Of a stretch of 16,029 nt of DNA, positions 1 to 16,029 are shown in pieces. Below the pieces are notes generated by a model. It ran no database searches. It was not told the origin of the DNA and worked only from the letters and a program-made list of their open reading frames with translations. The DNA is from a virus: positions 1 through 16,029 of the IMG/VR virus record IMGVR_UViG_3300007775_000008; one strand, 5' to 3'. How positions within the stretch are numbered: the stretch's first letter is position 1; each line of letters begins with the position of its first letter. A program made the position numbers and the translations under genes.

Positions 1-123
1 AACTTATTCCAGGCGTCCTTGATGCCGAAAATCTTCTCGAATACTTTGTTGAAACGTTCCACGAAGGCATCCCAGGCTTCCTGCAGGTATTCCGTGGCCG
101 CATCCGTATCACCTTTCAGGAAA
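1..123. repeat. Left copy of the exact 123-bp terminal direct repeat (assembly overlap of a circular molecule, or terminal redundancy)
   Basis: aacttattccaggcgtcc...cacctttcaggaaa at 1-123 is identical by eye to 15907-16029. Confidence 0.95.
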
Positions 124-1310
124 GATGTGAACGCCTTCCAGATATTCGTCCAGAATTTTATGCTGAACTGCATGGTATCGCGTATCCCCAAGAAGTTGGT
201 CTTCCAGGCCAGCGCGAAGATGGCCAGCGTCGCGATGACCGCCGCCAAGACCGCCAATATCGGAAGCAGTGCAGCAGCCAATGCACCCAATGCGGGTACC
301 GCGATGGTGGAGATGGATGTACCCATGGCAGTAATAGCTGTGCCTGCGCCTGCCAATACACCACCCGGCCCAAATAATCCAATTAATCCAGTTGCAGTTG
401 ATACCAGTGTACCTAAGAAAGAAAGCAGCGGACCCACAGCGGCTGCCATAGCGAGAAAACCTAAAACCATTTTCTGTTGAACAGGCGAAAAGTTGTTGAA
501 AGCTGCCAGCATCTTATTGAGCGTGGTTACAACTTCCAAAGCGATCGGTAGCAAGTTCTCACCGAGAGTGATCAATAGGTTCTTGAATTCAGCCTGAGTC
601 CCCTTCACCTGGTTCGCCAGACTGCCTCCCGTCTCTGCCATATCATTCAAAGCCGGATTAAGTTTTTCGTCTAAAGCGATCGCGTTCAAGATAATGGCGC
701 GTTGGTTCGCGGTTAGGTTCTTCGTGTTGGAATCGAGCAACCCATTGGCGGTGCCATAGGTCTTAATAAACTCATTCGTGATGAATGGGAAATATCGCTG
801 AATCGGTTCGTACTGTCCACGGATGGCACTCTGCCATGCGGCTGAGACATCCGCCGCTGCAGCTTCATGGAAAGAACCAAGATCAACAATATGCTTGACT
901 GATTGTTCAGCAAGTTCCGTTGCTTCTTTGATTCCCATGCCCCCTGATGTAAATATTGCACCCAATGAAGAAGCGTAATCCAAATATTCCGTCTTGCTCA
1001 ACTTCAAAGTTGCTGATGCTTTATTGGCATTTGAAACAACACTATCTGCCATCTCACCGAAGACAACTTCCGCTTTGTTTTTCGTTTCTTCAAACGAACT
1101 GGCCGCACTAATAGCCGCGCCCCCCAATGCAACAATGGGAAGTGTCAGCCCTAGTGTAAGTGTTCTTCCAGCCGCTTTCATGCCATTGCCAAGAACTACG
1201 CCAGCCTTCTGCAGTTGTTGAAGACCAGCAACACCCGTCTTGACTCCATTAGTCAGTCCAGAAGTATTGAGGCTAACTTTTCCGTATGCACTGCCGAGTT
1301 GTATTGCCAT
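1..1310 (-). CDS. Phage tail tape measure protein, N-terminal ~436 codons (runs off the window start and continues at 15906 after the wrap)
   Basis: ATG at 1310 is preceded by GGAGCAGATC. I checked every plus-strand triplet of this frame from 1310 to 3 and found no tta/cta/tca. An upstream in-frame TGA sits at 1323-1325. Translation: MAIQLGSAYGKVSLNTSGLTNGVKTGVAGLQQLQKAG...FEETKNKAEVVFGEMAD...NQRAIILNAIALDE..., followed by a Gly/Ala-rich hydrophobic block. This is typical of TP901-family tape measure cores. The ORF is absent from the track only because it has no stop inside the window. Confidence 0.8.
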   Translation of the reverse strand, partial: MAIQLGSAYGKVSLNTSGLTNGVKTGVAGLQQLQKAGVVLGNGMKAAGRTLTLGLTLPIVALGGAAISAASSFEETKNKAEVVFGEMADSVVSNANKASATLKLSKTEYLDYASSLGAIFTSGGMGIKEATELAEQSVKHIVDLGSFHEAAAADVSAAWQSAIRGQYEPIQRYFPFITNEFIKTYGTANGLLDSNTKNLTANQRAIILNAIALDEKLNPALNDMAETGGSLANQVKGTQAEFKNLLITLGENLLPIALEVVTTLNKMLAAFNNFSPVQQKMVLGFLAMAAAVGPLLSFLGTLVSTATGLIGLFGPGGVLAGAGTAITAMGTSISTIAVPALGALAAALLPILAVLAAVIATLAIFALAWKTNFLGIRDTMQFSIKFWTNIWKAFTSFLKGDTDAATEYLQEAWDAFVERFNKVFEKIFGIKDAWNK

Positions 1311-1320
1311 GATCTGCTCC

Positions 1321-1366
1321 AATCAAAAGCGCCCGAACAGAAATTCAAAGAATTTCTATCGGGCGC
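1321..1366 (-). terminator. Terminator-like hairpin between the integrase stop and the tape-measure RBS
   Basis: GCGCCCGA-ac-AGAAATTC-aaa-GAATTTCT-a-TCGGGCGC (1329-1366) is followed on the minus strand by TTTTGATT, then GGAG and the ATG. Confidence 0.5.
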
Positions 1367-1475
1367 AAGTTCGACTAAAGCACGTTACTAAGAACGTATG
1401 GCGCTTTTCCCTCTCACAACTTCCTGATCGGGCGCTTCTTATATAGCCCAATTTTAATACTTATTACCAAATACT

Positions 1476-2531
1476 TCAAGAGTCATCCAGGCCAAGAAAT
1501 ACACCGTCATTCTCCGCATCGCCATGATCGATATATCGAGCTGCGCTTGAAGGGGATGCCCACCCACCAAACGCCATCAATCCAGCCAGGGACACACGCG
1601 GATCATGCCCCGCCTGGGTTGCTCCATAATGACGGCAATCGTGCGGCGATAGTTTTTCAATCCCAATTCCCTGCCCCAGGTGCCTTACACGGTCCTGAAT
1701 ACTACGTGTGGCCATCCCCTTGCCTGGTGTTAGCTGTCCTGTTTTATGGGATGCAAGAATCAGCGGACCGCTTTCAGCGCGGTTATCCTTTTGGACATAT
1801 TCGCAAAGTCTCTGCCAAGCACGACCGCGCAAATTATGCGTTGACCACTTGCCTACTTTCGGGCGATAAAAAATCATTTGTCGGTCTTGAAAGTTTATAT
1901 CTTCAATTTTCAGGATCGCAAGTTCTGAAACACGCATACCATGATCCAAAAGCAATATCATCATGAGCGCATCACGGCGGGCTTGTGGCATGTCATTCTT
2001 GACCTTGCATAATGCCTGAGCTTGTTCCTCGGTGATCGTTGTAGCCTTTGCTTTCTTTGTCCCCTTGCGAATCTCCAACCCTTGCTTCGTGCGCTTTGCA
2101 TCTGCATCGATGCCCTCTTTGACTGTGTAGCCCTTTAGGCTTTGCAAGCGGATGATTTCACCATCGGGGATTATTCCTGCTGAGTTGGCCAAGGTCATAT
2201 AAACCTTGACAATTGAAACGCGATCATTGATCGTCTTTATGCTGTAGCCTTCCCTGAGCTGCCATTTCTGAAATGCAGCACAAAGCCCCCAGGTAATCCC
2301 ATGCCAGGCATTTGGATCTTCGTACAGGTCGCCTGTTGGCATGATTCCGCATGTTTGCAAGAATTTAGAGAATACTTTCAGCCCCGCACGTTGGCCGCGC
2401 TGCGTGTTGATCGGTCTGCGGTCCTGGTAGATCGCAAAAACCGCGCTCTCCGCGGCTCTGTTTGCCTCGAAGCCTAGAGTTTGCATGTTCTCCGATTCGG
2501 AGATGGTAATAGGTTGCAAAAGAGTGTTCAT
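1476..2531 (-). CDS. int: Tyrosine recombinase / phage integrase family
   Basis: 351-aa ORF. It has the catalytic-type motifs GMRVSEL (Arg), HDCRHY (H-x-x-R) and GGWASPSSAARYI (Trp/His plus the Tyr nucleophile), and an N-terminal SAM-like core-binding region. The start could alternatively be the internal ATG at 2486. Confidence 0.9.
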   Translation of the reverse strand: MNTLLQPITISESENMQTLGFEANRAAESAVFAIYQDRRPINTQRGQRAGLKVFSKFLQTCGIMPTGDLYEDPNAWHGITWGLCAAFQKWQLREGYSIKTINDRVSIVKVYMTLANSAGIIPDGEIIRLQSLKGYTVKEGIDADAKRTKQGLEIRKGTKKAKATTITEEQAQALCKVKNDMPQARRDALMMILLLDHGMRVSELAILKIEDINFQDRQMIFYRPKVGKWSTHNLRGRAWQRLCEYVQKDNRAESGPLILASHKTGQLTPGKGMATRSIQDRVRHLGQGIGIEKLSPHDCRHYGATQAGHDPRVSLAGLMAFGGWASPSSAARYIDHGDAENDGVFLGLDDS

Positions 2532-2557
2532 TTTTGGATTTTCTCGCTTTCATAATC

Positions 2558-2601
2558 GGTCTAAAATCAACAGGGGCAGGATTTATACCATCCCGCCCCT
2601 G
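2558..2601 (-). terminator. Possible weak intrinsic terminator upstream of int
   Basis: Hairpin 2571-2581/2591-2601 (CAGGGGCAGGA / TCCCGCCCCTG, one mismatch, 9-nt loop) is followed on the minus strand by TTGATTTTAG. Confidence 0.35.
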
Positions 2602-2643
2602 TACGTGTCTCTAAGGGCTGTTTTTTGTTACGGTATTGCCGTC

Positions 2644-2826
2644 TTATGCTTCAATGTTCTTTCGCTCACGATATGCAGCTTGTTTGTGGGCATTGTTGCA
2701 ATAGCGTTGTGAATAATATTCAGTTTTGAAGTTTTGCCCACAATAGCCACAGATCCACGTGTAAATCTTCTTTGGCTTTACCTGGAGGGGCTTCGGAGTA
2801 TCTTCGCTTTTGCCTGTCCCATCCAT
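2644..2826 (-). CDS. Small zinc-ribbon-like protein (CxxC...CxxxH)
   Basis: The C-terminus reads KKIYTWICGYCGQNFKTEYYSQRYCNNAHKQAAYRERK. The start is uncertain: ATG 2826, ATG 2907 or TTG 2916, none with a good SD. It overlaps the next ORF. Confidence 0.45.
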   Translation of the reverse strand: MDGTGKSEDTPKPLQVKPKKIYTWICGYCGQNFKTEYYSQRYCNNAHKQAAYRERKNIEA

Positions 2827-2948
2827 CGCGTGAGACGGTCCACTCCTGTTTCCCACTCGTGAGGACAATCGCTCGGCAATATCCACGGCCTGCCCTCCGC
2901 TTTGCATCGAAGGCAAAACACTATGCGACGGGTCCCGTCCTCCTGCAT
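2778..2948 (-). CDS. Small zinc-finger-like protein
   Basis: MQEDGTRRIVFCLRCKAEGRPWILPSDCPHEWETG... The ATG at 2948 lies 5 nt after the upstream stop (TAG 2954-2956). The track's longer form (to 3017) would overlap the upstream gene by 64 nt. Confidence 0.45.
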   Translation of the reverse strand: MQEDGTRRIVFCLRCKAEGRPWILPSDCPHEWETGVDRLTRWMGQAKAKILRSPSR

Positions 2949-2953
2949 TATCC

Positions 2954-3754
2954 CTAGGCCATATACTCTGGACGGTCTTGAAAAGGGCGCGGCGTTTCGC
3001 CTAACTCCTTCCCGCACTTCTCACACTTTGCCGCATGTTGGGGGTTTGAATTGCCACACCCTAAACATGTCCAGCCTCCAATAGGGTGATAGGTTGGTTC
3101 TTTGCTTTGTTCTTGGTCATAGGGATTTTTTAAAATAGGCATGGCTGTTTGCTGGTATGTTCTATCCTTTGGCAAGAATGGCATATTAGGATCGGCCTCT
3201 TCAAGCCCCAAATCCCGCTTTACCTGCGACACAATATCTCGGTGAATAGTCACGGCTAGACTTGCCTTTTCCTGGTCAAGTTCGTTTGTCGCCTGCTTTA
3301 TGGCGGTAGTGACGATCTCGCCGCGTGCAATGCCTACGTTTATCTTTTCGTGAATGTCGGGGGCGGTCGCTTCATGGGCGTAGAGCAGGGCGGCATGTAA
3401 AGCCGTCACGATGATGAAGCCATAAGTCATCCATTGCCCGATGTCGCCCGCTTCGATCTGTCCGCTGGATAAGATAACTTCGGCGGCCACCATGCCAAGA
3501 GTGCCAATGAATGCCACAATAAAACCAATGGCTGAGCTTGCATATTGACCTGTACTCTCGGACGTGAACACAAATGCCAAAGCCCAACACATCGCCGCAA
3601 TGTCAAACATGACAAGTCCCCACATGCGATTTATGAGACTATCCGGGAAGATGCGGGCAAGTGCGGAGTAGGTGAGGGACATTAGCAGCGCCAGGACTGC
3701 GATCCCGAACACTGCGAAGATATATTTACTTGCTGTTTGCAAAACTTTTTTCAT
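2954..3754 (-). CDS. Integral membrane protein (about 4 TM helices) with a C-terminal zinc ribbon
   Basis: The ATG at 3754 overlaps the upstream TGA (ATGA) and is preceded by AAGGA 7 nt upstream. The track start at 3772 is a TTG. The N-terminal half has hydrophobic helices and the C-terminus reads GGWTCLGCGNSNPQHAAKCEKCGKELG. Confidence 0.7.
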   Translation of the reverse strand: MKKVLQTASKYIFAVFGIAVLALLMSLTYSALARIFPDSLINRMWGLVMFDIAAMCWALAFVFTSESTGQYASSAIGFIVAFIGTLGMVAAEVILSSGQIEAGDIGQWMTYGFIIVTALHAALLYAHEATAPDIHEKINVGIARGEIVTTAIKQATNELDQEKASLAVTIHRDIVSQVKRDLGLEEADPNMPFLPKDRTYQQTAMPILKNPYDQEQSKEPTYHPIGGWTCLGCGNSNPQHAAKCEKCGKELGETPRPFQDRPEYMA

Positions 3755-4128
3755 GGGGTTATCCTTTCGCAATAGTGCGAATTTATCCAGCCTGTGAAAT
3801 TTTCAAACTGGACTTTTACCCAAGCGCCTGAAGACGGATCGGGTAAGAGAATCAATTGATCTCCCGGCTTTAGCCAGGTGATTACAATCCCTGCCATGCC
3901 TGGAGCGTCTCGCATGTACAAAGACTCCGCAGCGGTCACAACGCAAGTGCTCGGCGCTGGGGTGGTGCTTGCGGTCCCTGTGGGTGCAATCGAATTGATA
4001 GGGGAGGGGAGAGCTTGCTCAGTGGGAGAAACATCAACTGCATTTCGATCGATCGAATCCAGGAGCGATCCGCTGCAAGCCAAAGAAGACAGGGCGAGAA
4101 AGACCGCGATTAGTAATATCCTATTCAT
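3751..4128 (-). CDS. Lipoprotein with a bacterial SH3 (SH3b) domain
   Basis: MNRILLIAVFLALSSLAC is a signal peptide with a lipobox Cys. The C-terminus, LYMRDAPGMAGIVITWLKPGDQLILLPDPSSGAWVKVQFENFTGWINSHY, is SH3b-like. The ATG at 4128 lies 4 nt after the upstream TGA, so the longer track start is unlikely. Confidence 0.7.
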   Translation of the reverse strand: MNRILLIAVFLALSSLACSGSLLDSIDRNAVDVSPTEQALPSPINSIAPTGTASTTPAPSTCVVTAAESLYMRDAPGMAGIVITWLKPGDQLILLPDPSSGAWVKVQFENFTGWINSHYCERITP

Positions 4129-4132
4129 AATG

Positions 4133-4489
4133 TCACCCTGTAATTTCACGCGGGTAGCTTGTTCCACCAGGCGAATGGAACACTCCGCCAATCGCAGCTA
4201 TTTTATGGCTTGCCGATGAAACTGCCTCCAACATAAATTGATTCGCGATCGCTTTGACTTTTCCATCTTTTTCAGTTTCACTATCCCAAGTTGTTAAGAT
4301 GGCTATATCTTGCAGTAAGTCCAACGCATCCTTTTTGGCCCCAATCTTTTCGAGATAAGCTGCTAATGCCTCGAAAGCCGTATCCTTAATCGCGCTCAAA
4401 AATTCTTGAGAAAACACTGGCTCTTCAAATGCTGGACCTGCAATGTCAATTTCCCTAGCTTTCCGATCAACATCATTTTTCTTTTTCAT
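4133..4489 (-). CDS. Hypothetical protein (118 aa)
   Basis: It has a strong RBS (AGGAGTAAATC-ATG) and is the first gene after a regulatory intergenic region. I recognise no motif. Confidence 0.65.
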   Translation of the reverse strand: MKKKNDVDRKAREIDIAGPAFEEPVFSQEFLSAIKDTAFEALAAYLEKIGAKKDALDLLQDIAILTTWDSETEKDGKVKAIANQFMLEAVSSASHKIAAIGGVFHSPGGTSYPREITG

Positions 4490-4521
4490 GATTTACTCCT
4501 ACCTGTTACCAGGCTGATTTA

Positions 4522-4530
4522 TGCTAAAAT
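4522..4530 (+). promoter_or_regulatory. Extended -10 promoter element on the plus strand (TGCTAAAAT)
   Basis: TGn-TAAAAT lies at 4522-4530. The -35 is poor (CCTGTT at a 17-bp spacing). Confidence 0.35.
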
Positions 4531-4536
4531 TCTTAT

Positions 4537-4598
4537 GGATGTTTTGACCTGCCCACTCAGGTCAGACACTAGGCTGCCTCGCTAGGGGCAGCTTTTTT
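4537..4598 (+). ncRNA. Candidate ~60-nt plus-strand small RNA, antisense to the leader of the 4489 operon
   Basis: Hairpin 1 is TGACCTG-cccact-CAGGTCA (4545-4564). Hairpin 2 is GCTGCCTC-gcta-GGGGCAGC (4573-4592) followed by TTTTTTGTTTT. There is no plus-strand CDS here. Confidence 0.4.
4573..4598 (+). terminator. Plus-strand intrinsic terminator
   Basis: An 8-bp GC-rich stem (one G-T pair) with a 4-nt loop is followed by T6. On the minus strand it has no U-tract. Confidence 0.6.
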
Positions 4599-4699
4599 GT
4601 TTTCTTTTTCTTGCCCCTGTCCGTATCATCAATACCCAGGCTAAGAACCAGAGCGCACGATGAACGGTTATTCAGTTGTTAATGTGCGGGGTCTTTTCT

Positions 4700-4828: not shown

Positions 4829-5083
4829 CTATTGATCTGCCTTTCGGCGGGGATCGTTCTTTTCCATGTCTTTAGTTCGTTTGAGATATTCAGCCACCGA
4901 TTTTTTAGACACAAGCCATGCACGGCCAAACTTTACTCCATCAAGTGTTTTGTTTCGCAGCATCATTGGGATTGTCTTGACGTGAAAGCCTAGCTTTTTG
5001 GCGGCATCTTTTGTTGAGATGAATTCGCTTAAATCTGGCATATTATTGCTTCTTGCTTGTTTTGTAGGTGAAATATTTATCAT
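4829..5083 (-). CDS. Excisionase-family / MerR-like HTH DNA-binding protein (candidate Xis or RDF)
   Basis: ISTKDAAKKLGFHVKTIPMMLRNKTLDGVKFGRAWLVSKKSVAEYL matches the excisionase-type HTH pattern. The ATG at 5083 is preceded by GGAGA-TAAAC, and the recombinase TAA stop lies within that RBS region. Confidence 0.65.
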   Translation of the reverse strand: MINISPTKQARSNNMPDLSEFISTKDAAKKLGFHVKTIPMMLRNKTLDGVKFGRAWLVSKKSVAEYLKRTKDMEKNDPRRKADQ

Positions 5084-5085
5084 GT

Positions 5086-6708
5086 TTATCTCCATTCGAC
5101 CATGATAGATTTTTCACCACGTATTATCTGTGTGCCCCCACGGGGAGAGGCTACGTTACGTGAGTTATCAGATCCATTCTGAAACAGATCTATCATGGGG
5201 TATGTAAAAAATATTCTTGCTTTATTGTATCCGAGATCGACTCTTGAAACAAATTGCATAAGCCAGGCTTTTACATCTCTCACGTTTCCAGACTCTTGCA
5301 GATCTTCGAATTGATCGCGCCAGGCGATTATCATCAATCGGATTGCTTCCGGAGTGATCACTGTTTGAGCCGCTGTGAGCTGAAGACGTAAACGATCGAT
5401 CTCCGCTCTTGCTTGCATCTTTTCTGCCTCCCGTTCTTTTAGCCTATCCTGGGCAGAGGGAGAGTCTGTCTTTTCGATGGTCCTAAGCAGTCTCTGAATC
5501 GCAATGTCGAGATCATCCAGCTTTCGGTTTTCGGCGGTGATCTGCCTTTCAATTTCTGTTGTTGAATCAAGTTGTTTTTTCGTTTCGTCGATAACCTCCA
5601 TAAGATATTCAGGTGTAAGAACATGATCAAGCACGGCTTTTATAATTTGTGTCTCTGCATTGATCGCCCCAACTCTTCTTGACTTACAAGCAGCGGAACC
5701 ATGGCGATCCTTCTTTCCGCAAATATAATGTTTCCATACTTTATTTTTATTGCCGTTGCTATGGGTCATCATGTTCCCGCATTCAATGCAGTAAGTGAAA
5801 CCCGATAGAGCTGTAGGATTTCCCACTCGCCGCGGATGATTTAGGTTTCCTTTTTTTCCATAGCGCGGATGTGCCTTTCTAAGTTTTTGCACGGCTTCCC
5901 AGAGCTCCCAGGTGATAAGCGGCTCATGATGGTCCGTGATTTCAAGATCTCCGCTCTTGCCAATGCCCAAATAGGATTTATTCTTAAAAAAAGTTGTCCA
6001 TGTGTTGACACTTGTATACAACATCCCTTTTGTAGCTTTGGTGATTTCCCGATAAGATTTTCCCTCAGCTCTCAATTGCCAGGCTATTTTTACATACCCA
6101 CTCAAAACTGGATCAGGCTCCCATCTGCTAACCATGCGCGGTATACCATCGCGCTTTTCACCAATGTTCACTTTGACGGCGACATATCCGCGGGGAGGTA
6201 TGCCAGGCGAAAAACCCTTGCTCACAAGTGACTTTAAACCACGCTTCACATCACGGGAAGTTTGACGGCGCTTTTCTTCATTGGCCAGGCTGATAACTGT
6301 TTCTACAATACGCGCTGAAAAATCATCCACAGGGATCACGTCTGTCACGGAGTGGACCATTACCCCACGCTGCTGCAATGTTGCTTTGTAAAATACGGTG
6401 TCATTATAGTCACGCGAGAAGCGGGCAAAGTTCCAAATCAAGATAGCCTGGGGGCGGATTGTTTCGTCTTCGCTTTGTTCAATCATTCCCATAAATTCAT
6501 CACGTCCAGTTGTACTTCCTCCTGATCGGGCAACATCTCGAAAAACTTTGACCAGGGAAAGGTTATACCGTTTGCAATATGCAATGATTTCGCTTTCCTG
6601 TTGTCCTATGCTCTGCTCCTGAGCTGGTCCGCCGCTGTCACGCAAGTATGCCCACACGCGAGCACCTGCAGTCAAGCTCGGCGGGGGAGGGGAGTATTGA
6701 TCGCTCAT
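5086..6708 (-). CDS. Large serine recombinase (resolvase catalytic domain, recombinase domain, zinc ribbon and coiled coil)
   Basis: 540 aa. The N-terminus WAYLRDSGGPAQEQSIGQQESEI carries a YxRxS-type nucleophile motif. CIECGNMMTHSNGNKNKVWKHYICGKKDRHGSAAC is a zinc ribbon, followed by the coiled coil RKLDDLDIAIQRLLRTIE...EIDRLRLQL. RBS is AAGGATAAATT-ATG. Confidence 0.9.
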   Translation of the reverse strand: MSDQYSPPPPSLTAGARVWAYLRDSGGPAQEQSIGQQESEIIAYCKRYNLSLVKVFRDVARSGGSTTGRDEFMGMIEQSEDETIRPQAILIWNFARFSRDYNDTVFYKATLQQRGVMVHSVTDVIPVDDFSARIVETVISLANEEKRRQTSRDVKRGLKSLVSKGFSPGIPPRGYVAVKVNIGEKRDGIPRMVSRWEPDPVLSGYVKIAWQLRAEGKSYREITKATKGMLYTSVNTWTTFFKNKSYLGIGKSGDLEITDHHEPLITWELWEAVQKLRKAHPRYGKKGNLNHPRRVGNPTALSGFTYCIECGNMMTHSNGNKNKVWKHYICGKKDRHGSAACKSRRVGAINAETQIIKAVLDHVLTPEYLMEVIDETKKQLDSTTEIERQITAENRKLDDLDIAIQRLLRTIEKTDSPSAQDRLKEREAEKMQARAEIDRLRLQLTAAQTVITPEAIRLMIIAWRDQFEDLQESGNVRDVKAWLMQFVSRVDLGYNKARIFFTYPMIDLFQNGSDNSRNVASPRGGTQIIRGEKSIMVEWR

Positions 6709-6944
6709 AATTTATCCTTGCTGTTGTTAGGAATTATTTTTCCGTTTTCGTTTTTCAAAATTCCACGCTCTAAAAGATCATTAATGACAGTCTCAAAATT
6801 TATTACAAGCAGAGACAATGCCGCATCTTGCGCCGTTTTCAGATCGGCATATTGATTGCCGCTGATTTCTTCGATAATCATATCAGGCGCTTTCCGGGGC
6901 ATTGTCTCTGCTTTTATCCTTAGATCTTGTGTTACTTTTTTCAA
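6705..6944 (-). CDS. Hypothetical small protein, translationally coupled to the serine recombinase (ATGA overlap)
   Basis: 79-aa ORF. The start at 6944 is a TTG with a distant GGAG, and an alternative ATG lies at 6902. Confidence 0.5.
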   Translation of the reverse strand: MKKVTQDLRIKAETMPRKAPDMIIEEISGNQYADLKTAQDAALSLLVINFETVINDLLERGILKNENGKIIPNNSKDKL

Positions 6945-9988: not shown

Positions 9989-10112
9989 AACAATTCCTTT
10001 CCTAAATATTTTGTGATAATGTGGCGGCGCGACCACCACTGTATAAGATCATCGTTGATTCCAGTAGTAAAAAAGAGCGTTGGGAGAGCGATCAATCAAT
10101 ACTGGATTTTTC

Positions 10113-10160
10113 CTGTACATTTTCTGTACATTTTCTGTAAAAATATTTTTATATCGATAT
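10113..10160. repeat. Iteron-like 11-bp tandem repeat plus AT-rich palindromes (candidate replication origin or promoter/operator)
   Basis: CTGTACATTTT occurs twice (10113-10134) with a degenerate third copy CTGTAAAAAT. It is followed by the palindromes AAAATATTTT (10140-10149) and ATATCGATAT (10151-10160). Confidence 0.45.
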
Positions 10161-10243
10161 CAGATCTCGACCCGTTTTTCTGGAAAAGTTGTGAAGCGCC
10201 GAGACGCTGCGCCCTCGGGCGCCTGGCCAGATCGAGCGCGAAT

Positions 10244-10277
10244 CCCCGAAGACCCCACCCCCCCTATCCCCTTCCCC
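10244..10277 (-). other. G-quadruplex motif on the minus (coding-sense) strand / i-motif on the plus strand
   Basis: Plus-strand C-tracts lie at 10244-10247, 10253-10256, 10258-10264, 10268-10271 and 10274-10277. On the minus strand this reads GGGGAAGGGGATAGGGGGGGTGGGGTCTTCGGGG. Confidence 0.6.
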
Positions 10278-10335
10278 ACACGCGAGATCTATACCGTGCC
10301 CGGACCTGTCCGCACGCACGCACTCCCGCACGGAA

Positions 10336-10392
10336 TTATTGGCGGTTAAATTCGTTTTCAAAACATCTTCAAAACATCTTGACCGCCAATAA
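10336..10392. repeat. 11-bp perfect stem enclosing a tandem 11-mer repeat
   Basis: TTATTGGCGGT (10336-10346) pairs with ACCGCCAATAA (10382-10392). The 35-nt loop carries TTCAAAACATC twice (10357-10378). Confidence 0.6.
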
Positions 10393-10464
10393 CTCAACAG
10401 TCCCAAACGTGTATAGGCTTCCCTATCAGATGCTATTTTCTGCAGTGATCGGGCTGCTTCTGTT

Positions 10465-10506
10465 GTCCGCGGTGTACTGTTAAAACTGTCACAGTACACC
10501 GCGGAC
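10465..10506. repeat. 16-bp perfect inverted repeat (hairpin or cruciform)
   Basis: GTCCGCGGTGTACTGT (10465-10480), loop taaaactgtc, then ACAGTACACCGCGGAC (10491-10506). There is no flanking U-tract on either strand. Confidence 0.7.
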
Positions 10507-10519
10507 TAGCAAGCCCCAC

Positions 10520-10587
10520 GCCCCAGGCAAATCACACAGGAAGGGCGGAGAAGGAGAAAGACCTCCCCTACCGTGTTTTCCTGGGGC
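10520..10587. repeat. Long-range 8-bp clamp around a purine-rich segment
   Basis: GCCCCAGG (10520-10527) pairs with CCTGGGGC (10580-10587). The interior reads GGAAGGGCGGAGAAGGAGAAAGACCTCCCC. Confidence 0.4.
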
Positions 10588-10660
10588 AGCATGGCCAAGG
10601 CACATAACGCCCAATAAAAGAGCATTTTGGGCTTCATGTTTCTACTGAATAAGAATTAAG

Positions 10661-11548
10661 TTATAAAGGTTCCATGGCGCGCGCCGCCGCCCCGCTATCA
10701 CGCTCCCGCTCTCGTTCTCGCTCCGCATCTTCCCATGCTTCAGCCCGCCTGACAGCGGACCTATAAGCCAAGGTCAAAGCCTTGTACCTGGGCGCGTATT
10801 TCGATCTCAGGCATTTTTCACAGATGACAAAATCTGAATCGATGTAAATAGATTCTTCTATGTATGCACCTTGCAGATCTTCAACGTCTGAAACAACTTC
10901 AAGATATTCGGCCTCTTCAGCCGCATAAGCAAATGTTCCAGCAGCGGACCAGTTGAAAGAAGTTCCACAAATTGCACATTCAGTAATTTCAAAATCCACA
11001 ATCTTTTCAAAACGCTGGGGGAAGTGGTTGATCTTGTTTGATATCTCACCGCTGCTTTTTGAGAGGTAATCCAGTATCCAATCACCCGCAATTTCAAAAG
11101 CGTGTTTTTGCAGATCGTCCATTAGATCGGTTTTGTAGCTGATCGCGTAAGATTGATTGCCCGTTTTTGGATCGGTGTAGATATGGCCAATCGTCTTCCA
11201 TTCATCAGTTGGATTAATTCTGAGTTTGGTTCTCTTTTCGTTGTTTGGTATTACCTGCCTTTTTGGATCGGCTTTCCGTTTCTGTAAAAACTTGAGTACC
11301 ATTCCAAATGTCCATGAATAGCGGCGCTTTAGCCAGGTGATTACATCGCCGGTTTCCTGCTCCATGCCTGGACGATTGATCTCATACGTTTGACGGCGGA
11401 TGTCCACAGTCAAGCCGTATGTATTTGTGCTGCGCCATATTTCGGAGTTTTTCGCGTCCACTTCAAACGCTTCGCCCGCTTCCTGCATGAGAAGCTCGAT
11501 ACGATGTTTTTCCTTCAATGCACGGAGTTCGTCTTTAGTCATCTTCAT
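10661..11548 (-). CDS. Hypothetical protein (295 aa) with two CxxC pairs and an acidic/ERERER tail, coupled to the upstream ATPase
   Basis: The ATG at 11548 is preceded by AGGTGA-CAGCG and overlaps the upstream gene by 14 nt. Motifs are CAICGTSFNW...ICEKCLRSK and a C-terminal AEAWEDAERERERERD. Confidence 0.65.
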   Translation of the reverse strand: MKMTKDELRALKEKHRIELLMQEAGEAFEVDAKNSEIWRSTNTYGLTVDIRRQTYEINRPGMEQETGDVITWLKRRYSWTFGMVLKFLQKRKADPKRQVIPNNEKRTKLRINPTDEWKTIGHIYTDPKTGNQSYAISYKTDLMDDLQKHAFEIAGDWILDYLSKSSGEISNKINHFPQRFEKIVDFEITECAICGTSFNWSAAGTFAYAAEEAEYLEVVSDVEDLQGAYIEESIYIDSDFVICEKCLRSKYAPRYKALTLAYRSAVRRAEAWEDAERERERERDSGAAARAMEPL

Positions 11549-12851
11549 CGCTGTCACCTGCCAATTCATATATCTTTGCACCCTTCGCAGCGCTCACGAA
11601 GATGATCTCTCGTGTTCCATGAAGAATTTCAATCCCTTCCCTAATATTTGCATCACTCAGGCTTTTATCAATGCGCTTTGCTTCTGCCCTCAATTGCGTG
11701 TGATTCAATTTATCGTTCTGTTTGAGGGCTTCAATGATCGCATCATGTGCCCGGGCAGTTTTGCTTCGATAGGCAATCCGCCAAAAACGCGCCTCTGTCA
11801 GATCCAAGTTTTCATCTTGGGTGTATGAAAAGTTTGCACTGATGTTGGGAGCATCAGGACCACGGACGGCCACTGGCTTGATCGTGACCTGGTCTTTATC
11901 AGCCATATCTCGTTCAACAAGGAACGCTCCGTCAACCCCAGCAAGGATGCTTCCCGATCCCCTTAGATTATCTTCAGGTGCCCCACCCGCTTTACCAATG
12001 CCCTTTTTGGCATGATGTACCAGGATGATCGCAACATTACACGCTTCTGATATCTGACGAATGGCTCCCATGATTTGAGAAGCTAGCGGACTGTTTTCAT
12101 CCACGGGGCCAAACACCTGCCCAAGATGATCTATAACAAGCACCCCAATATCTCCAAGCCCTTTTATGCGTTCGATCATTGCAGCCACATTTTCAGGCCT
12201 TGAAAAATCCGGCCATGGAGAGGGCATGCTGTAGGCTTGAAACTGGCCGTGGTCAATATCAATCTCCAGCGCCCTGGCGAATGCTTTCATGCGTCTTTTC
12301 AAAACTTGGGTACCATTTTCCAGATCGATCCAAACAACACGCTCAGACGCTACTTCAATGCCATCGCTTCCCTTGGGGGTGGTCATCCAATATAAGCCGC
12401 TCACAATGTGATGACACATATCCATAATGACCAATGTCTTTTTATGCTTCGGTTTTCCAAAGAAAACCACCACTGAAGGACGTGGAAGGAAATATCTCAC
12501 GACCCATGAAATAGGCGGGATCTCCTCCACCATCACATCTGCCAGGTCGAAGGCTTCCCAACCCTTTGACGTTTCCAGTGTTGCCAGGTCCGCATTAGGA
12601 TTTGCGAGATCGATCATGGGGGAAAGTATCAGATCCAAGCCACGTGCCGTCAGCTCTGCCTGTAATCTGCTCTTACGCTTTGACTTGTCCCTCCCCTCCG
12701 ATAGGACACTCATCACCACATCAAGCAATGGACCCTGTAAGCGGGATAAATCCGCCGCTGTTGGATCGTTTGCAGTGGAATCAGTCAATCTCCGTAGTAA
12801 ATGCGCCGCGTAGTTAAGTACGTGCTGGGGTTGTTGCGTTGTGTCTGCCAT
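11535..12851 (-). CDS. RecA-fold ATPase, RepA/AAA_25-like (replicative helicase-like)
   Basis: 438 aa. The Walker A-like motif is FFGKPKHKKT (12435-12458). VLVIDHLGQ is Walker B-like, followed by AIILVHHAKKG...LRGSGSILAGVDGAFLVER, typical of the AAA_25/RepA pattern. No clear SD precedes the ATG at 12851. Confidence 0.75.
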   Translation of the reverse strand: MADTTQQPQHVLNYAAHLLRRLTDSTANDPTAADLSRLQGPLLDVVMSVLSEGRDKSKRKSRLQAELTARGLDLILSPMIDLANPNADLATLETSKGWEAFDLADVMVEEIPPISWVVRYFLPRPSVVVFFGKPKHKKTLVIMDMCHHIVSGLYWMTTPKGSDGIEVASERVVWIDLENGTQVLKRRMKAFARALEIDIDHGQFQAYSMPSPWPDFSRPENVAAMIERIKGLGDIGVLVIDHLGQVFGPVDENSPLASQIMGAIRQISEACNVAIILVHHAKKGIGKAGGAPEDNLRGSGSILAGVDGAFLVERDMADKDQVTIKPVAVRGPDAPNISANFSYTQDENLDLTEARFWRIAYRSKTARAHDAIIEALKQNDKLNHTQLRAEAKRIDKSLSDANIREGIEILHGTREIIFVSAAKGAKIYELAGDSDEDD

Positions 12852-12889
12852 GTTTTCATTTTTTCAATAATCAACGGGTCAAACGTTTT

Positions 12890-13462
12890 TCACCTTTTGT
12901 TGAGTTTTCTTCGTAAGTCAGTCGGTGTGATTTCTTTTTTCGTTGTGATCTCGTTTGGAAAAAAATCCATCAACGCTGGAAGATCCGTAGCAATCTTTGA
13001 AATAAGATTGGCGCGTTTGGTTTGTACGTAAGTAAGGGTGTGATGATCGCCGCTTTTCAAGTCGGCTCGATACGCGCTGTATTTCTCTTTGAGCTCATCT
13101 GTCTTATTGGCAGCATCCAAAAACAGGGCGTAAATCTCATCCTGAATTTGCAGAGCATCTTTATTGATCTCCGCCATTCTGGAAAGGCGAATAGTATTTA
13201 ACTCTTTCGCACGTTCCTGTTCATCTTTCTGAATCTCAAAGTCCAGGTCTTTGATTCCCGTTTCGGTCCCTTCAATGCGAACTCGAAGATTTACAATCTC
13301 ATCAGTCAACTTGGAAGTTGACCGCCCATCACGTATTGCCTGGGATTGATCGGAGAGTTTCACTTTGAGAGATGCTCTCTGCTCATCAAGCAGTTTCACG
13401 AGCTCGGAGCGCTGCTCCTTGGTTGTAGCTAGTTTTTTTTCAAGTTTTTCAAGTGTGTTCAT
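12890..13462 (-). CDS. Coiled-coil hypothetical protein (190 aa)
   Basis: RBS is AAGAGGAAAC-ATG. The sequence is heptad-rich and charged (EKLEKKLATTKEQRSELVKLLDEQRASLKVKL...). Confidence 0.65.
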   Translation of the reverse strand: MNTLEKLEKKLATTKEQRSELVKLLDEQRASLKVKLSDQSQAIRDGRSTSKLTDEIVNLRVRIEGTETGIKDLDFEIQKDEQERAKELNTIRLSRMAEINKDALQIQDEIYALFLDAANKTDELKEKYSAYRADLKSGDHHTLTYVQTKRANLISKIATDLPALMDFFPNEITTKKEITPTDLRRKLNKR

Positions 13463-13471
13463 GGTTTCCTC

Positions 13472-13666
13472 TTATTCATCCAAGCGAATGAATGTTTTGT
13501 TTCGATTTTCGTCGCGTTCTTTAATTGAAACTTTTTTCCCCAGGCTCTCGTTCATTAGCTTTACGACCGCATCCTGAATCGATTGCTTTTCTTCTTCTGT
13601 CAACTTTTCAAATGCGGCCGCATCTTCATCGTCAACGGGAATGTATATGGATATTCTTTTTTTCAT
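13472..13666 (-). CDS. Small protein (64 aa), possibly ribbon-helix-helix-like
   Basis: The ATG at 13666 is preceded by AAAGGAG-TTTGAAA. The track start at 13672 is a TTG. The N-terminus KRISIYIPVDDEDAAAFEKL resembles an RHH strand-helix. Confidence 0.55.
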   Translation of the reverse strand: MKKRISIYIPVDDEDAAAFEKLTEEEKQSIQDAVVKLMNESLGKKVSIKERDENRNKTFIRLDE

Positions 13667-13668
13667 TT

Positions 13669-14166
13669 TCAAACTCCTTTAGGTGGAAAATATTGAATAC
13701 TTAACGCTGCATTTAACAGCGCCATGATTCCAGTGTCATCAAACTTTGCTAAGGCTACATTCTCAATAATCTTTTCAAGTTGATCCGCTATACTTTGCGC
13801 TTCAATCTCAATAGGCTTTTTAGGATGCTGTAGCCTTTCATCATCACTTACAGTCAAATAAGGTCCACGCTCGAGAATAATTTTTTCAATTATTTCCATT
13901 GTTCCGCTTTCAAATTCTGGAAGTTTATGCCCCGCTAAATAATGGCCACATTCATGTAGGGCAGTTAGGTAAAGATCGTATGTAGAAAGTTTCGGATTAA
14001 TATCGATGCAAATCACGCCTTTACCATCCCGGTAGATTTCTCCAGCGGTGTTCTGTGTTCTTGGCTCACGCCAATTGACCTTCACAGTCATTTGAATAAA
14101 GTTAATGCACATCAAACGAATCAGCCTTTTAACTTCTTCGATGTCAACTTGGTGATTTTCGTCCAT
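13669..14166 (-). CDS. HExxH zinc metallopeptidase-like protein (SprT/ImmA-IrrE-like zincin)
   Basis: 165 aa. GVICIDINPKLSTYDLYLTALHECGHYLAGH carries the HExxH motif in the context seen in SprT/DUF45/ImmA-type zincins. Confidence 0.6.
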   Translation of the reverse strand: MDENHQVDIEEVKRLIRLMCINFIQMTVKVNWREPRTQNTAGEIYRDGKGVICIDINPKLSTYDLYLTALHECGHYLAGHKLPEFESGTMEIIEKIILERGPYLTVSDDERLQHPKKPIEIEAQSIADQLEKIIENVALAKFDDTGIMALLNAALSIQYFPPKGV

Positions 14167-14180
14167 CTGATTTATTCATC

Positions 14181-14372
14181 CTATGTGGAAGATTCCGAGA
14201 TCTGCTCAGTGGGAAAAACATCTTGCGAAATATCAATCAATCCCTCTTGGGCAAGTCGTTCTCGAATCAATAATGCAGCTTGATCCCCAGGCTCTCGTTT
14301 CTCTCTTTCAGAGAGAGAAATCAAAGCACTCTTCTCTTGGTCACTCAAAATAATTGTTAGACGTGTTGACAT
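14181..14372 (-). CDS. Ribbon-helix-helix (CopG/Arc-like) DNA-binding protein
   Basis: 63 aa. TRLTIILSDQEKSALISLSEREKREPGDQAALLIRERL fits an RHH. RBS is GGAGTGAAAACAA-ATG. Confidence 0.65.
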   Translation of the reverse strand: MSTRLTIILSDQEKSALISLSEREKREPGDQAALLIRERLAQEGLIDISQDVFPTEQISESST

Positions 14373-14401
14373 TTGTTTTCACTCCATTAACAAAAAAATG
14401 A

Positions 14402-14435
14402 CGGCTATTCATGCCGTCATTTTTGCATATTATTT
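14402..14435 (-). terminator. Bidirectional intrinsic terminator
   Basis: A7, then ATGACGGC-tattcat-GCCGTCAT (14408-14430), then T5. On the minus strand the hairpin is followed by TTTTTTTG. Confidence 0.7.
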
Positions 14436-14475
14436 TTTGTTAGGCTACTTCAATGAACCTATCGATAACCTATTT

Positions 14476-15069
14476 CTACTTTCTTTCTTTATCGTAAGGG
14501 ATACGAGCATCTGGAAAGCTTCTTCTTAATTTAGAAATTTTGTTATGTACTGTTGTGACTTTCCAAAAGTCTAACCCTTTACCTTTAGTCCAATCTGAAA
14601 TTTCCTTTGCAGTTTTATTTTCACACCATAATTCAACAGCTTTACGTTCCTGGTCCGAAATACTTACTGGTAAATGGTCACAAGGACTCCAAATTTCTCC
14701 CATCGTTTTTACTGTGTCACCTTCCTGCAGTACCTTGGCATATGGCCCCCCCCAAATATAATCCTTATCTATTACACTTTTCCAAAACAACCAAAACAAA
14801 ACGATATTTAGTCTATTCACTTTGTCTGTTTTGTCTCTCAATACCACTTCTATTTTGCATCCATAACCTGTATGTTCAAAACTAATATAAGCACCAGAGA
14901 AGCTTATCGAATAATGCTCATCTTCTCTCCACTCATTAAGATGCGTCTTTATTTTTAGTTTTGTAAGATGTCTGTCGAACCATGCTGAAAGATAGCTTGG
15001 ACTTTGACCCGATTTTGCAATCCAAGATTCGGGAAGTTCATCAAGTTCTTTTTCCAATAATTCATTCAT
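14476..15069 (-). CDS. Putative transcription regulator with a C-terminal LuxR/sigma-70 region-4-like HTH
   Basis: The ATG at 15069 is preceded by GGAGA-TAAGAGAC. The C-terminus reads SDQERKAVELWCENKTAKEISDW...TVHNKISKLRR. The gene is visibly AT-richer than its neighbours. Confidence 0.6.
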   Translation of the reverse strand: MNELLEKELDELPESWIAKSGQSPSYLSAWFDRHLTKLKIKTHLNEWREDEHYSISFSGAYISFEHTGYGCKIEVVLRDKTDKVNRLNIVLFWLFWKSVIDKDYIWGGPYAKVLQEGDTVKTMGEIWSPCDHLPVSISDQERKAVELWCENKTAKEISDWTKGKGLDFWKVTTVHNKISKLRRSFPDARIPYDKERK

Positions 15070-15084
15070 GTCTCTTATCTCCAA

Positions 15085-15114
15085 TTGACTAGCCCCGCTC
15101 GGAGATGCTATAAT
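15085..15114 (+). promoter_or_regulatory. Near-consensus sigma-70 promoter on the plus strand
   Basis: TTGACT (15085-15090), an 18-nt spacer, then TATAAT (15109-15114). It lies back-to-back with the RBS of the minus-strand regulator gene. Confidence 0.6.
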
Positions 15115-15120
15115 CAGTCC

Positions 15121-15185
15121 GAGCATGAGCCCGTGATCTCATGCACTCCCATCTCCGCCCTGGACGAACAGGACGGAGATTTTTT
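15121..15185 (+). ncRNA. Candidate ~65-nt plus-strand small/antisense RNA
   Basis: It is fired from the promoter above. Hairpin 1 is GCATGAG-cccgtgat-CTCATGC (15123-15144). Hairpin 2 is the terminator. Only a 3-codon ORF is present. Confidence 0.5.
15151..15185 (+). terminator. Plus-strand intrinsic terminator
   Basis: ATCTCCGCCCTG-gacgaa-CAGGACGGAGAT (a 12-bp stem with one G-T pair) is followed by TTTTT. On the minus strand the same hairpin lacks a U-tract. Confidence 0.65.
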
Positions 15186-15211
15186 ATAGGGGAGATATTA
15201 TTTTACAAGAT

Positions 15212-15448
15212 TTAATTCACCTCGCTTAGCTTGTTTGCCAATCCTTGGGCCAACATTGCGAGTTTCATTCTAAACGTAAGCTTGTTACCCAGCAATGCCT
15301 GATATGAGCATGAACTCCAAATTGTGACGGGCTTCCCATAATGTGGGGATACTTTGCCATTGCAAAAGTGATCGTCTGTTGAAGTTTCTCTACCTTTGAT
15401 TTGAGTCCTACACATCAAGCAGACAGTTCCGACCTTCTTTTTTTCCAT
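15212..15448 (-). CDS. Small Cys-rich hypothetical protein (78 aa), coupled to the tape-measure stop
   Basis: GGAGG-CGTGTAGG-ATG, with the ATG 1 nt after the tape-measure TAG. It contains CLMC and HFC motifs. Confidence 0.6.
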   Translation of the reverse strand: MEKKKVGTVCLMCRTQIKGRETSTDDHFCNGKVSPHYGKPVTIWSSCSYQALLGNKLTFRMKLAMLAQGLANKLSEVN

Positions 15449-15449
15449 C

Positions 15450-16029
15450 CTACACGCCTCCTAAATTGAAAATCAACTCGTTGGCCAGCATATCAACCCG
15501 CTGATCGATCTCTCCACGAATTTGACGTAGTGTAAGACCGCTATTGAAATACTGGTTGATCGTCTGCTGCTGTGAATTGGACTGGTTCGTGATCGGTTGT
15601 ACCAGCGAACGCGCCATATCTTCAGGAGAGACGCGCTGCAAACCCATCTGAAAGCCCTGTGCGGTGAACATGCCCAGCTTCATAGCTTCTACCGACGGCG
15701 AACCAATCCCCAAAGATTTCTTGATCGCGCTTAGTACCGTCTCACCTACTTTTGTAGCAACCGTCAATAGTCCGGGGATGCCAAGCAACATGCCGTTCGC
15801 CAATCCCTGCAGGATGTATTTACCAACCAGCCCCCAATCGATGCGAGAGAATGTATCGCGGATATAGGTCACAAGTTTGCCGAGCGCATCACGCATGAAT
15901 GTCATGAACTTATTCCAGGCGTCCTTGATGCCGAAAATCTTCTCGAATACTTTGTTGAAACGTTCCACGAAGGCATCCCAGGCTTCCTGCAGGTATTCCG
16001 TGGCCGCATCCGTATCACCTTTCAGGAAA
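15450..16029 (-). CDS. Phage tail tape measure protein, C-terminal part (same gene as 1..1310 across the junction; about 588 aa in total)
   Basis: Track ORF 15450..15968 is in frame with the ORF from 1310 (1310 minus 62 equals 1248, a multiple of 3). The track's initial 'M' is an internal GTG valine. The sequence contains the LGIGSPSVEAMKLGMFTAQGF motif common in tape measure C-terminal regions. Stop is TAG at 15450-15452. Confidence 0.8.
   Translation of the reverse strand, partial: FLKGDTDAATEYLQEAWDAFVERFNKVFEKIFGIKDAWNKFMTFMRDALGKLVTYIRDTFSRIDWGLVGKYILQGLANGMLLGIPGLLTVATKVGETVLSAIKKSLGIGSPSVEAMKLGMFTAQGFQMGLQRVSPEDMARSLVQPITNQSNSQQQTINQYFNSGLTLRQIRGEIDQRVDMLANELIFNLGGV
15907..16029. repeat. 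Right copy of the exact 123-bp terminal direct repeat
   Basis: Identical to 1-123. It lies inside the tape-measure reading frame. Confidence 0.95.

Follow-up and report, generated by a model that had tools for sequence, protein, structure and literature searches.

A tape measure gene in a 15.9-kb integrative element of Chloroflexota: a candidate new family of phage satellites

Genome organization

The stretch of DNA analysed here (the window) is the 16,029-nt IMG/VR virus record IMGVR_UViG_3300007775_000008, which contains a small mobile element with integration genes, replication genes and a gene for a phage tape measure protein (TMP). Window bases 1-123 and 15907-16029 form an identical terminal direct repeat, the overlap left by the assembler on a circular path, and because these 123 nt are identical the unit was taken to be a 15,906-bp circle. 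Approximately 20 genes are present in this unit, and every open reading frame (ORF) that was scored as a gene is encoded by the minus strand. The ORFs were searched with the Pfam, PHROGs and NCBIfam profiles. The TMP ORF crosses the circular junction: its 436 N-terminal codons, beginning with an ATG at 1310, occupy 1-1310, and the 152 C-terminal codons and the stop occupy 15450-15906, so that the whole protein is 588 aa in length and is in frame across the junction.

Two recombinases were identified by Pfam and PHROGs, a tyrosine integrase of the Phage_integrase family (1476-2531) and a large serine recombinase with Resolvase, Recombinase and Zn_ribbon_recom domains (5086-6708). An excisionase-like DNA-binding protein of the AlpA/Xis type, with an HTH_17 helix-turn-helix (HTH) domain, is encoded at 4829-5095, and a small conserved protein, p79 (6705-6944), always precedes the serine recombinase. 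Replication genes are found at two places. The first, at 7051-9411, encodes a Prim-Pol and DUF3987 protein of the primase-helicase type (Pfam/PHROGs), analogous to the "pri-rep" proteins of other elements, and the second (11535-12851) encodes an AAA_25 protein, a RepA/DnaB-like ATPase with a RecA fold, whose gene is always translationally coupled to that of p306 (10661-11581), a protein with a C-terminal CxxC...CxxC motif. An earlier reading of the window, made without database searches (the sequence-only reading), had assigned it two recombinases, a Xis-like HTH protein and two replication proteins of these kinds, and the profile matches bear this out. The same reading recognised no capsid, portal, terminase, tail tube, baseplate, lysis, relaxase or coupling gene, and among window ORFs of at least 63 aa Pfam, PHROGs and NCBIfam likewise gave no match to capsid, portal, terminase, tail tube, baseplate, endolysin, relaxase or coupling-protein families.

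Integration sites and completeness of the element

The circle is also present in an NCBI contig from an Anaerolineales metagenome-assembled genome (MAG), DATFMU010000206.1 (L001), whose 16,047 nt overlap at the ends by 141 nt and whose linear breakpoint is offset by 17 nt. The Logan contig L002 matches the window at 100% identity across 10.5 kb; this marks it as the same strain, and it was dropped as an independent confirmation. A second circle of 17,017 bp from IMG/VR, L028, has its TMP gene well inside the contig, between the same neighbours as in the window, and its gene order (Rep, p79, serine recombinase, HTH, p118, TMP, p216, zincin, coiled coil, AAA_25 and p306) matches that of the window. 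L028 keeps the serine recombinase and has no tyrosine integrase.

Integrated copies, for which the sequence-only reading had proposed a search, were found at the 3' ends of tRNA genes, where relatives of 14.4-16.1 kb are flanked by direct repeats of 13-21 nt. L039 is integrated at a tRNA-Glu gene (21-nt repeats, 16,058 bp) with its TMP gene inside the att limits, L043 at a tRNA-Val gene (19-nt repeats, 16,060 bp), and L031 is bounded by 13-nt repeats at 14.4 kb. The GC content of the elements is 3-5% below that of the flanking chromosome. The window carries an attP that matches these integrated relatives. Its predicted core, TCTCCCCGTGGGGGCAC (5130-5146, minus strand), mimics the 3' end of tRNA-Glu, and window positions 5146-5091 are colinear with the attL of L039. 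This core falls within the final codons of the serine recombinase gene, just upstream of the HTH gene, and the recombinase ORF crosses it (5086-5146), with the tRNA-Glu mimic encoding ...SPRGGT.... Since the ORF reads through the core, integration would swap approximately its last 15 codons.

In the integrated relatives the genes at attL follow the order tRNA, HTH and tyrosine integrase, while the serine recombinase is the last gene before attR; the HTH gene of the window would likewise be the first after attL, with the tyrosine integrase behind it. Because an arrangement of tRNA, HTH and tyrosine integrase corresponds to the classic attL-xis-int layout, integration into tRNA genes was attributed to the tyrosine enzyme. 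On this comparison the tyrosine integrase of the window is most likely the tRNA-site integrase, with the adjacent HTH protein as its directionality factor.

These results bear on whether the window could be an assembly artefact, a mis-circularised fragment of a 35-50-kb prophage. All three assemblies break within the TMP gene (the window in the overlap at 1-123, L001 at an offset of 17 nt and L002 at position 218), a pattern suggesting that a second TMP gene in the sample may have k-mers in common with it. However, the TMP is in frame across the junction at exactly the length of its family, the L028 circle has an internal TMP gene with the same neighbours, L039 is an att-bounded integrated copy of 16.06 kb that contains the TMP gene, and the window holds the attP expected of an excised form. 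An artefact is therefore scarcely credible, and the window is a complete integrative element of the att-bounded type and not a prophage fragment, as the sequence-only reading had supposed in calling it a complete unit. The assembly ends within the TMP gene (window 1-220) may be a mark left by the helper, as a co-resident phage whose TMP gene shares exact k-mers there with that of the element would be expected to cause them.

The tape measure protein

The window TMP matched more than 15 PHROG TMP families (best E 2e-26) and passed the TIGR01760 model marginally, with 29.0 bits vs a cut-off of 28.8; Pfam gave no match at E 0.01 or better. Approximately 200 relatives were found in databases, most of them 527-763 aa in length with a mode of 581-589 aa. 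Identity between the window protein and phage TMPs is 58-67%, compared with 58-73% among the phage TMPs themselves. The window protein shows the same regional conservation profile as these, is colinear with them without indels, and keeps their conserved termini. The nearest homologues are P0002 (67% identity, 587 aa), P0004, P0027, P0043, P0052 and the TMP of Virus Rctr41k. In all of these, and in L009-L025, the TMP gene is located between a DUF7391 gene and the genes for a 123-aa protein and an approximately 975-aa tail-tip protein. The window TMP gene itself lies outside any tail module, flanked by the tyrosine integrase on one side and by p78 and p216 on the other.

As its length range, identity and conservation are those of the phage alleles, the window protein appears to be an ordinary, functional virion TMP allele in a non-virion context. 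The matches to PHROGs and TIGR01760 and the phage structural modules around its homologues all indicate that the 588-aa protein is a member of a true virion TMP family, and the identification made by the sequence-only reading stands. Its suggestion that such a protein could re-measure the tails of a helper phage is unlikely to hold: a length of 588 aa equals the modal phage length, the protein is colinear with the phage alleles, and a changed tail length is for this reason not expected. Tails made with the longer TMPs of L028 (745 aa) and L039 (687 aa) might differ in length, although phage alleles reach 763 aa as well.

The source phage lineage

Every inspected TMP relative outside the element family sits in one syntenic structural module, which belongs to a lineage of temperate, siphovirus-type phages of Chloroflexota. 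Many contigs of this lineage cluster at 40-46 kb, and Virus Rctr41k (KX853513.1) is a deposited member of 41.3 kb. The module comprises a candidate small terminase subunit (TerS), the large subunit (TerL), a protease-capsid fusion of 870-920 aa, an adaptor, Neck1, a portal, a MuF-like protein, a major tail protein, the DUF7391 chaperone, the TMP, a protein of 123-128 aa and the tip protein of approximately 975 aa; there is no sheath. The lineage is unusual in that prohead protease, Ig-like domain and capsid are fused into the one protein of 870-920 aa (L007 765-6893; L057 161-5322; L064), and in that the portal and MuF-like genes come after the adaptor and Neck1 and not beside the terminase.

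The TMP is all that Rctr41k has in common with the window; the non-structural genes of the phage are unrelated to the element backbone. Scans of IMG/VR with AAA_25 motifs returned elements only. Together these two results indicate that the element backbone is not derived from a phage. The GC content of the phage loci is higher than that of the elements. Three other window proteins, p118, an SH3-domain lipoprotein and a 272-aa membrane protein (mem272), also have homologues in phages of the TMP source lineage, so that the description of the TMP as the only virion gene of the window holds for recognisable virion genes only.

The element family and the accessory status of the TMP

Relatives of the element were found with the AAA_25 protein as a marker, and approximately 15 distinct members were obtained from Chloroflexota MAGs and metagenomes. 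A TMP gene is present in about 5 of the 15, in three TMP lineages and at two slots. In the slot downstream of the tyrosine integrase/p118 it is found in the window (588 aa), in L067 (586 aa, N-terminus MAIQLGSAYGKV), in L039 (687 aa) and in L028 and L027 (745 aa); L043 carries a TMP of 577 aa in the other slot, before p79 and the serine recombinase. The TMP ORF is intact in all of the TMP-bearing members found. No TMP was found in L029-L033, L038, L040, L042, L068 or L069. The window TMP is closest to phage alleles and not to those of other elements, the TMPs of L028 and L039 form an intact element-specific clade (54% identity over 741 aa) that is phage-like only in the C-terminal half, and the TMP of L043 belongs to the third lineage.

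L043 also carries other assembly genes. At 15066-18708, within its att limits, it encodes a chaperone-like protein, a stand-alone Peptidase_S77 prohead protease, a second chaperone-like protein, a Neck1/tail completion protein and the TMP. Both chaperone-like genes are similar to DUF7391, the protease is 56% identical to the phage fusion protein, and Neck1 shows 63% identity to its phage counterpart. A sharp break was seen between L027 (5400-6296) and L028 (7350-7840), which differ by one base in the first 5.4 kb that they share and then diverge abruptly in the last 400 nt or so of the TMP gene. L027 runs on into a phage-type post-TMP gene (126 aa, 64% identity to L019), while L028 runs on into element genes; at this breakpoint either the element recombined recently with a phage or the assembly joined two sources chimerically at shared sequence.

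The sequence-only reading took the TMP as the defining trait of the element type, a view that does not survive the finding that approximately two thirds of the relatives have no TMP. The distribution across the family indicates instead that the TMP is an accessory gene, which has been acquired repeatedly and does not define the family. Other cargo was seen as well, namely an IS1595-type transposase in L028 (14745-15725) and HicAB and BrnT toxin-antitoxin genes in L068 (4337-4953 and 17130-17444). Among the plasmids of PLSDB, an AAA_25 relative (33654-34586, 28% identity) is present on one alone, the 40.8-kb NZ_LN890657.1 of Candidatus Promineifilum breve, also of the Chloroflexota.

An accessory gene of this kind could be a mere passenger, that is, recombination debris from a co-resident phage with no role in an element that is simply a tRNA-integrating replicon. 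The absence of the TMP from most relatives is in keeping with this, as are the sharp L027/L028 breakpoint inside the gene and the GC content at third codon positions, which is 0.51-0.59 in the block of SH3, mem272, p90, tyrosine integrase and TMP genes at 1-4191 and 15450-15906 vs 0.30-0.48 in the backbone (lowest in p216 and the zincin), and thus fits a foreign origin. However, the TMP ORFs of the window, L067, L028/L027, L039 and L043 are intact, and four of them occupy the same slot; the element-specific clade has been kept to 54% identity without decay, the window allele is under phage-like constraint, and a 16-kb element would probably not retain 1.8 kb of DNA that served no purpose. A passenger role is thus quite improbable.

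It is very improbable that the element is a miniaturised defective phage, which arose by deletion from a phage of the helper lineage and retains the TMP as a remnant of the structural module. Phages of the lineage do have the TMP, the same type of serine recombinase (32-43% identity) and the SH3/membrane pair in common with the element, and two of the relatives are listed as viral contigs in IMG/VR. Against such an origin, the 41.3-kb genome of Rctr41k has the TMP alone in common with the window, the TMP-less relatives keep the same conserved backbone, and the differing TMP lineages and slots indicate gain of the gene and not a relic.

Evidence for a phage satellite

Once the relatives are considered, a satellite lifestyle, as proposed by the sequence-only reading, is the best interpretation of the element. 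In the PLEs, elements that resemble phage-inducible chromosomal islands, the TMP of the satellite replaces that of the helper ICP1 in chimeric tails, and its deletion cuts transduction by 96-99.9% (PMC12987554, Nature 2026). The window may be a satellite of a new family whose TMP similarly enters tails built by a helper phage, and we would put this at an even chance, with helper dependence, packaging and TMP incorporation as the parts that we infer. The circle would represent the excised state of an integrative element, 15.9 kb long and self-replicating, whose hosts are Chloroflexota of the Anaerolineae type. It would integrate at the 3' end of tRNA-Glu through the attP at approximately 5130-5146 and would be replicated by its own proteins, Prim-Pol/DUF3987 together with AAA_25 and p306. 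Its helper would be found among the 40-46-kb temperate siphovirus lineage of the same hosts, whose genomes are about three times as long; dependence on a helper is suggested because the element has no capsid, portal, terminase or tail tube gene. The full-length, helper-type TMP would have been taken from this phage lineage and would be built into tails made otherwise of helper parts. Satellite particles would in this way gain a TMP, and with it a DNA-entry device, of their own, and could escape superinfection exclusion or an element-encoded interference that strikes the helper TMP. Alternatively, the gain for the element could lie in interference with the helper.

Two features of the family are consistent with this. 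Virion-assembly genes have been captured repeatedly and from one phage lineage only (in the window, L067, L039, L028, L043 and L027), and the layout is satellite-like, with an integrase, an AlpA/Xis-like HTH protein and a primase-helicase in elements of 14.4-17 kb vs helper contigs of 40-46 kb. A broader form of the proposal is that this is the first satellite family of Chloroflexota and that it practises a modular piracy, in which single assembly genes of the helper are repeatedly gained, exchanged and lost by different members and TMP alleles recombine with those of helper phages. On this view chimeric tails, demonstrated up to now for the Vibrio PLEs alone, would be a general strategy among satellites, and an evolutionarily labile one. 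This is plausible, at somewhat under an even chance.

Packaging functions were sought both in the window and among 71 accessory ORFs from 12 relatives, and in neither set did Pfam or PHROGs give a match to terS, ppi, cpmAB or rpp. In the window Pfam and PHROGs revealed no transfer gene of the FtsK/SpoIIIE type, and one FtsK-like PHROG match was obtained among the 71 accessory ORFs. The sole unassigned window ORF big enough for a capsid fold is p306, at 306 aa. It was rejected as a cryptic capsid, having no Pfam, PHROG, NCBIfam or PDB match; as a primase it was also rejected, as hhalign against the DnaG-type primases of the family gave only a 16% probability, in the zinc-finger region. Overall, p306 looks replication-related. 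The coiled-coil protein cc190 (190 aa; 12890-13462), for which the sequence-only reading had suggested a scaffold-like remodelling role, showed no similarity to phage structural proteins when a hidden Markov model of six family members was compared with them (best E 0.19). Since it is conserved in TMP-less relatives beside replication genes, nothing points to a scaffold role.

Several results weigh against the satellite interpretation. Approximately two thirds of the family have no recognisable virion gene, and the TMP therefore cannot be required for transfer of the family. No helper phage was identified in the same sample. Mimicry of helper packaging signals was considered and dropped: the candidate TerS of L057, the one lineage member compared, has no homologue in any element and the DNA around it has no match, a comparison of TerS, pac and cos that is weak because the real helper is not identified. 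Unlike PLEs, the window has neither a tail assembly chaperone (TAC) nor a baseplate hub as a partner gene for the TMP. The one candidate for a chaperone, p118, is not TAC-like, with an hhalign probability of 0.8% against the DUF7391 alignment. In addition, p306, p216, cc190 and p118 gave no confident models: the single-sequence AlphaFold model of p306 was unusable (predicted local distance difference test, pLDDT, 35.6), and the model of p216 was of low confidence (pLDDT 51), with a C-terminal three-helix bundle that was moderately confident and HTH-like.

That no packaging function was found would also suit a non-packaged defence or interference island, an integrative and self-replicating island or plasmid-like replicon. 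Its TMP would serve as a decoy or a dominant-negative subunit, disrupting the tails or the DNA entry of infecting phages of the lineage and protecting the host population. Interference with tail assembly is known in mobile elements, from the Tai systems (PMC11364771) and from Rta of PLE11 (PMC12987554). The window TMP keeps the conserved termini with which it could engage helper partners, and the SH3 lipoprotein/membrane pair, also present in a prophage, could act in exclusion. On the other hand, PADLOC found no defence model that matches any window ORF, and a poison needs neither full length nor phage-like conservation along the whole TMP. The extra genes of L043 and L027 (protease, Neck1, chaperone-like and post-TMP genes) fit the building of particles better than its blocking. 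Interference and piracy are not mutually exclusive, as PLEs do both; an island devoted to interference alone is unlikely.

Comparison with known satellites and integrative elements

PLEs, like the window, are integrative satellites of approximately 16-18 kb that have no capsid or terminase genes and possess their own replication, a large serine recombinase and their own TMP. They replicate with a RepA-type initiator. PLEs inhabit Vibrio and have the lytic myovirus ICP1 as helper, whereas the element described here is found in Chloroflexota beside a siphovirus-type temperate lineage; its backbone consists of Prim-Pol/DUF3987 and AAA_25, and it is set apart from PLEs by host phylum and by the Pfam content of its replication genes. 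In contrast to PLEs, the element integrates at tRNA genes and has an additional tyrosine integrase. The TMP is conserved in all PLEs and accessory in the element family. PLEs encode a TMP and a TAC, joined in PLE11 by BhuB (PMC12987554), while the window has neither a TAC nor a hub and L043 has two TAC-like genes. The PLE11 TMP is 20% identical to that of ICP1 and differs from it by 95 aa in length, whereas the element TMP is 58-67% identical to the TMPs of the helper lineage and equal to them in length.

The statement of the sequence-only reading that no satellite is characterised by a tape measure is outdated. In addition to the PLEs, tmp genes have been mapped in PLE-like elements and, as putative genes, in some phage-inducible chromosomal islands of the capsid-forming kind (cfPICIs) (PMC12987554, Extended Data Fig. 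10), and mycobacterial EPIP satellites (Extracellular Prophage-Inducing Particles) carry a TMP, for which tail hijacking was proposed by the authors (PMC12822802). EPIPs, described from Mycolicibacterium (bioRxiv, December 2025), resemble the window in their small genome, serine integrase, HTH protein and TMP. However, EPIPs (approximately 11 kb) are annotated with TerS, a head-tail adaptor, a stopper, a scaffold and a major capsid protein (PMC12822802), none of which the window has, and EPIP tails are longer than those of the helper, whereas the equal TMP length of the element predicts equal tails.

Phage-inducible chromosomal islands (PICIs) of the SaPI and Gram-negative types are, like the element, approximately 15 kb in length, about one third of the helper, att-bounded, with unidirectional genes and accessory cargo; a genome of one third of the helper's is also seen in P4. 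The PICI set of an integrase, an AlpA/Stl-type regulator and pri-rep has its counterpart in the Phage_integrase, HTH_17 and Prim-Pol/DUF3987 genes of the window, a likeness of architecture only. Unlike a PICI, the element has no recognised gene for packaging or capsid redirection, and it has two recombinases, a second replication module (AAA_25 and p306) and the TMP. The cfPICIs are satellites that supply part of the virion, as L043 could with its prohead protease and Neck1, but they encode a full head module of capsid, portal, protease, adaptors and TerS, of which the window has nothing and L043 fragments only. The determinants psu, delta and sid of P4-like satellites were not matched in the window, nor was any other capsid-size determinant (PHROG, Pfam).

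Rctr41k and the metagenomic siphoviruses L003-L026 represent the TMP source lineage, with 45-67% identity over the full length of the protein, but they are 40-46 kb in size and have a complete structural module. Actinomycete integrative and conjugative elements (AICEs) and integrative plasmids share with the element a size of 9-24 kb, an integrase, an excisionase, Prim-Pol-type replication and tRNA integration. AICEs do not carry virion-assembly genes, however, and the window has no FtsK/SpoIIIE-type transfer gene such as theirs.

The element probably works as PLEs do without being a member of the PLE, PICI, cfPICI, P4 or EPIP groups. It differs from the TMP-bearing satellites above in its phylum and backbone, in the use of tRNA sites together with two recombinases, in a TMP allele that is helper-like and equal in length and not divergent, in the lack of TAC and hub in the window, and in a TMP that is accessory and can be swapped. 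No paper describing satellites in Chloroflexota was found in searches of full-text literature. If these elements are satellites, phage satellites would reach a phylum with almost no cultured phage-host systems, and the possession of an own tape measure, experimentally shown only for the Vibrio PLEs (2026), would have arisen independently in an unrelated element family. TMP-plus and TMP-minus siblings on one backbone would offer a natural series in which to study whether a TMP benefits its satellite by making entry specific, by evading exclusion or by interfering with the helper. The tRNA-Glu/Val integration module and the small self-replicating circles could also become genetic tools for Anaerolineae.

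Other genes of the window

Of the remaining genes, all on the minus strand, several lie between the tyrosine integrase and the HTH gene. The small, Cys-rich and zinc-ribbon-like p90 (2644-2916) is kept in relatives beside the SH3/membrane pair. This pair consists of mem272 (2954-3772), a multi-pass membrane protein that carries a RanBP-type zinc ribbon at its C-terminus, and of an SH3_3-domain protein with a signal peptide and the lipobox LSSLAC (3751-4128, likely start ATG at 4128; ORF to 4191). The pair (window 2954-4191) recurs downstream of the tail genes in prophage L007 (18657-20101 of a 414-kb contig), where the mem272 homologue is 38% identical, and it is also found in several TMP-less elements (L029, L031, L032 and L040). 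The pair may form a module for superinfection exclusion or for the envelope. The acidic protein p118 (4133-4489) is encoded directly upstream of the TMP in L028, in L039 and in the phage modules L018 and L019. A homologue search with p118 returned one relative only, and a PDB profile search gave only designed propeller repeats, which were treated as spurious.

On the other side of the replication genes, a metalloprotease-like HExxH zincin (13669-14166) shows a weak SprT-like match (E 9e-4; phrog_87) and is conserved in the family, as is p216 (14476-15126), a candidate regulator. The zincin is a candidate ImmA-like protease that could act in derepression. The small Cys/His-rich p78 (15212-15448) lies directly downstream of the TMP gene, and a protein conserved at 49% is found downstream of the L039 TMP. 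With respect to regulation, the zincin, by its weak match, and the HTH protein proposed by the sequence-only reading were recovered, whereas its ribbon-helix-helix protein (p63) had no profile match and its antisense RNAs none in Rfam, which gave no match anywhere in the window. Promoter and terminator scans of the window were at background level.

A structured intergenic region

The intergenic region at 10040-10660, after p306, is highly structured, with a folding energy of -237.7 kcal/mol (z -9.5 vs shuffles), and is conserved in blocks across seven members, namely the window, L028 (12865-13708), L039 (12327-12950), L038 (6570-7563), L029 (12204-13066), L040 (7556-7973) and L042 (8942-9398). 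It contains a palindromic hairpin at 10465-10506 with 16-bp arms. The arms differ between the window and the relatives while pairing is kept (13 pairs, 5 of them with changes on both sides), and the flanks TTCTGTGTGAT and CCCGATCAC are conserved. The region is a candidate for an origin, a recombinase or regulator site, or a structured RNA.

Within this region, window positions 10311-10351 match positions 2924-2964 of Virus Rctr41k (KX853513.1; L064), in the early region of the phage, with 85% identity over 41 nt. None of 220 shuffles matched equally well, the other family members have no such match, and both hits of an exact-motif scan in IMG/VR were unrelated. The match may be a shared operator or origin, or it may be due to chance. 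Both of the matching regions also bear TTAACCGC-type repeats and G-rich tracts.

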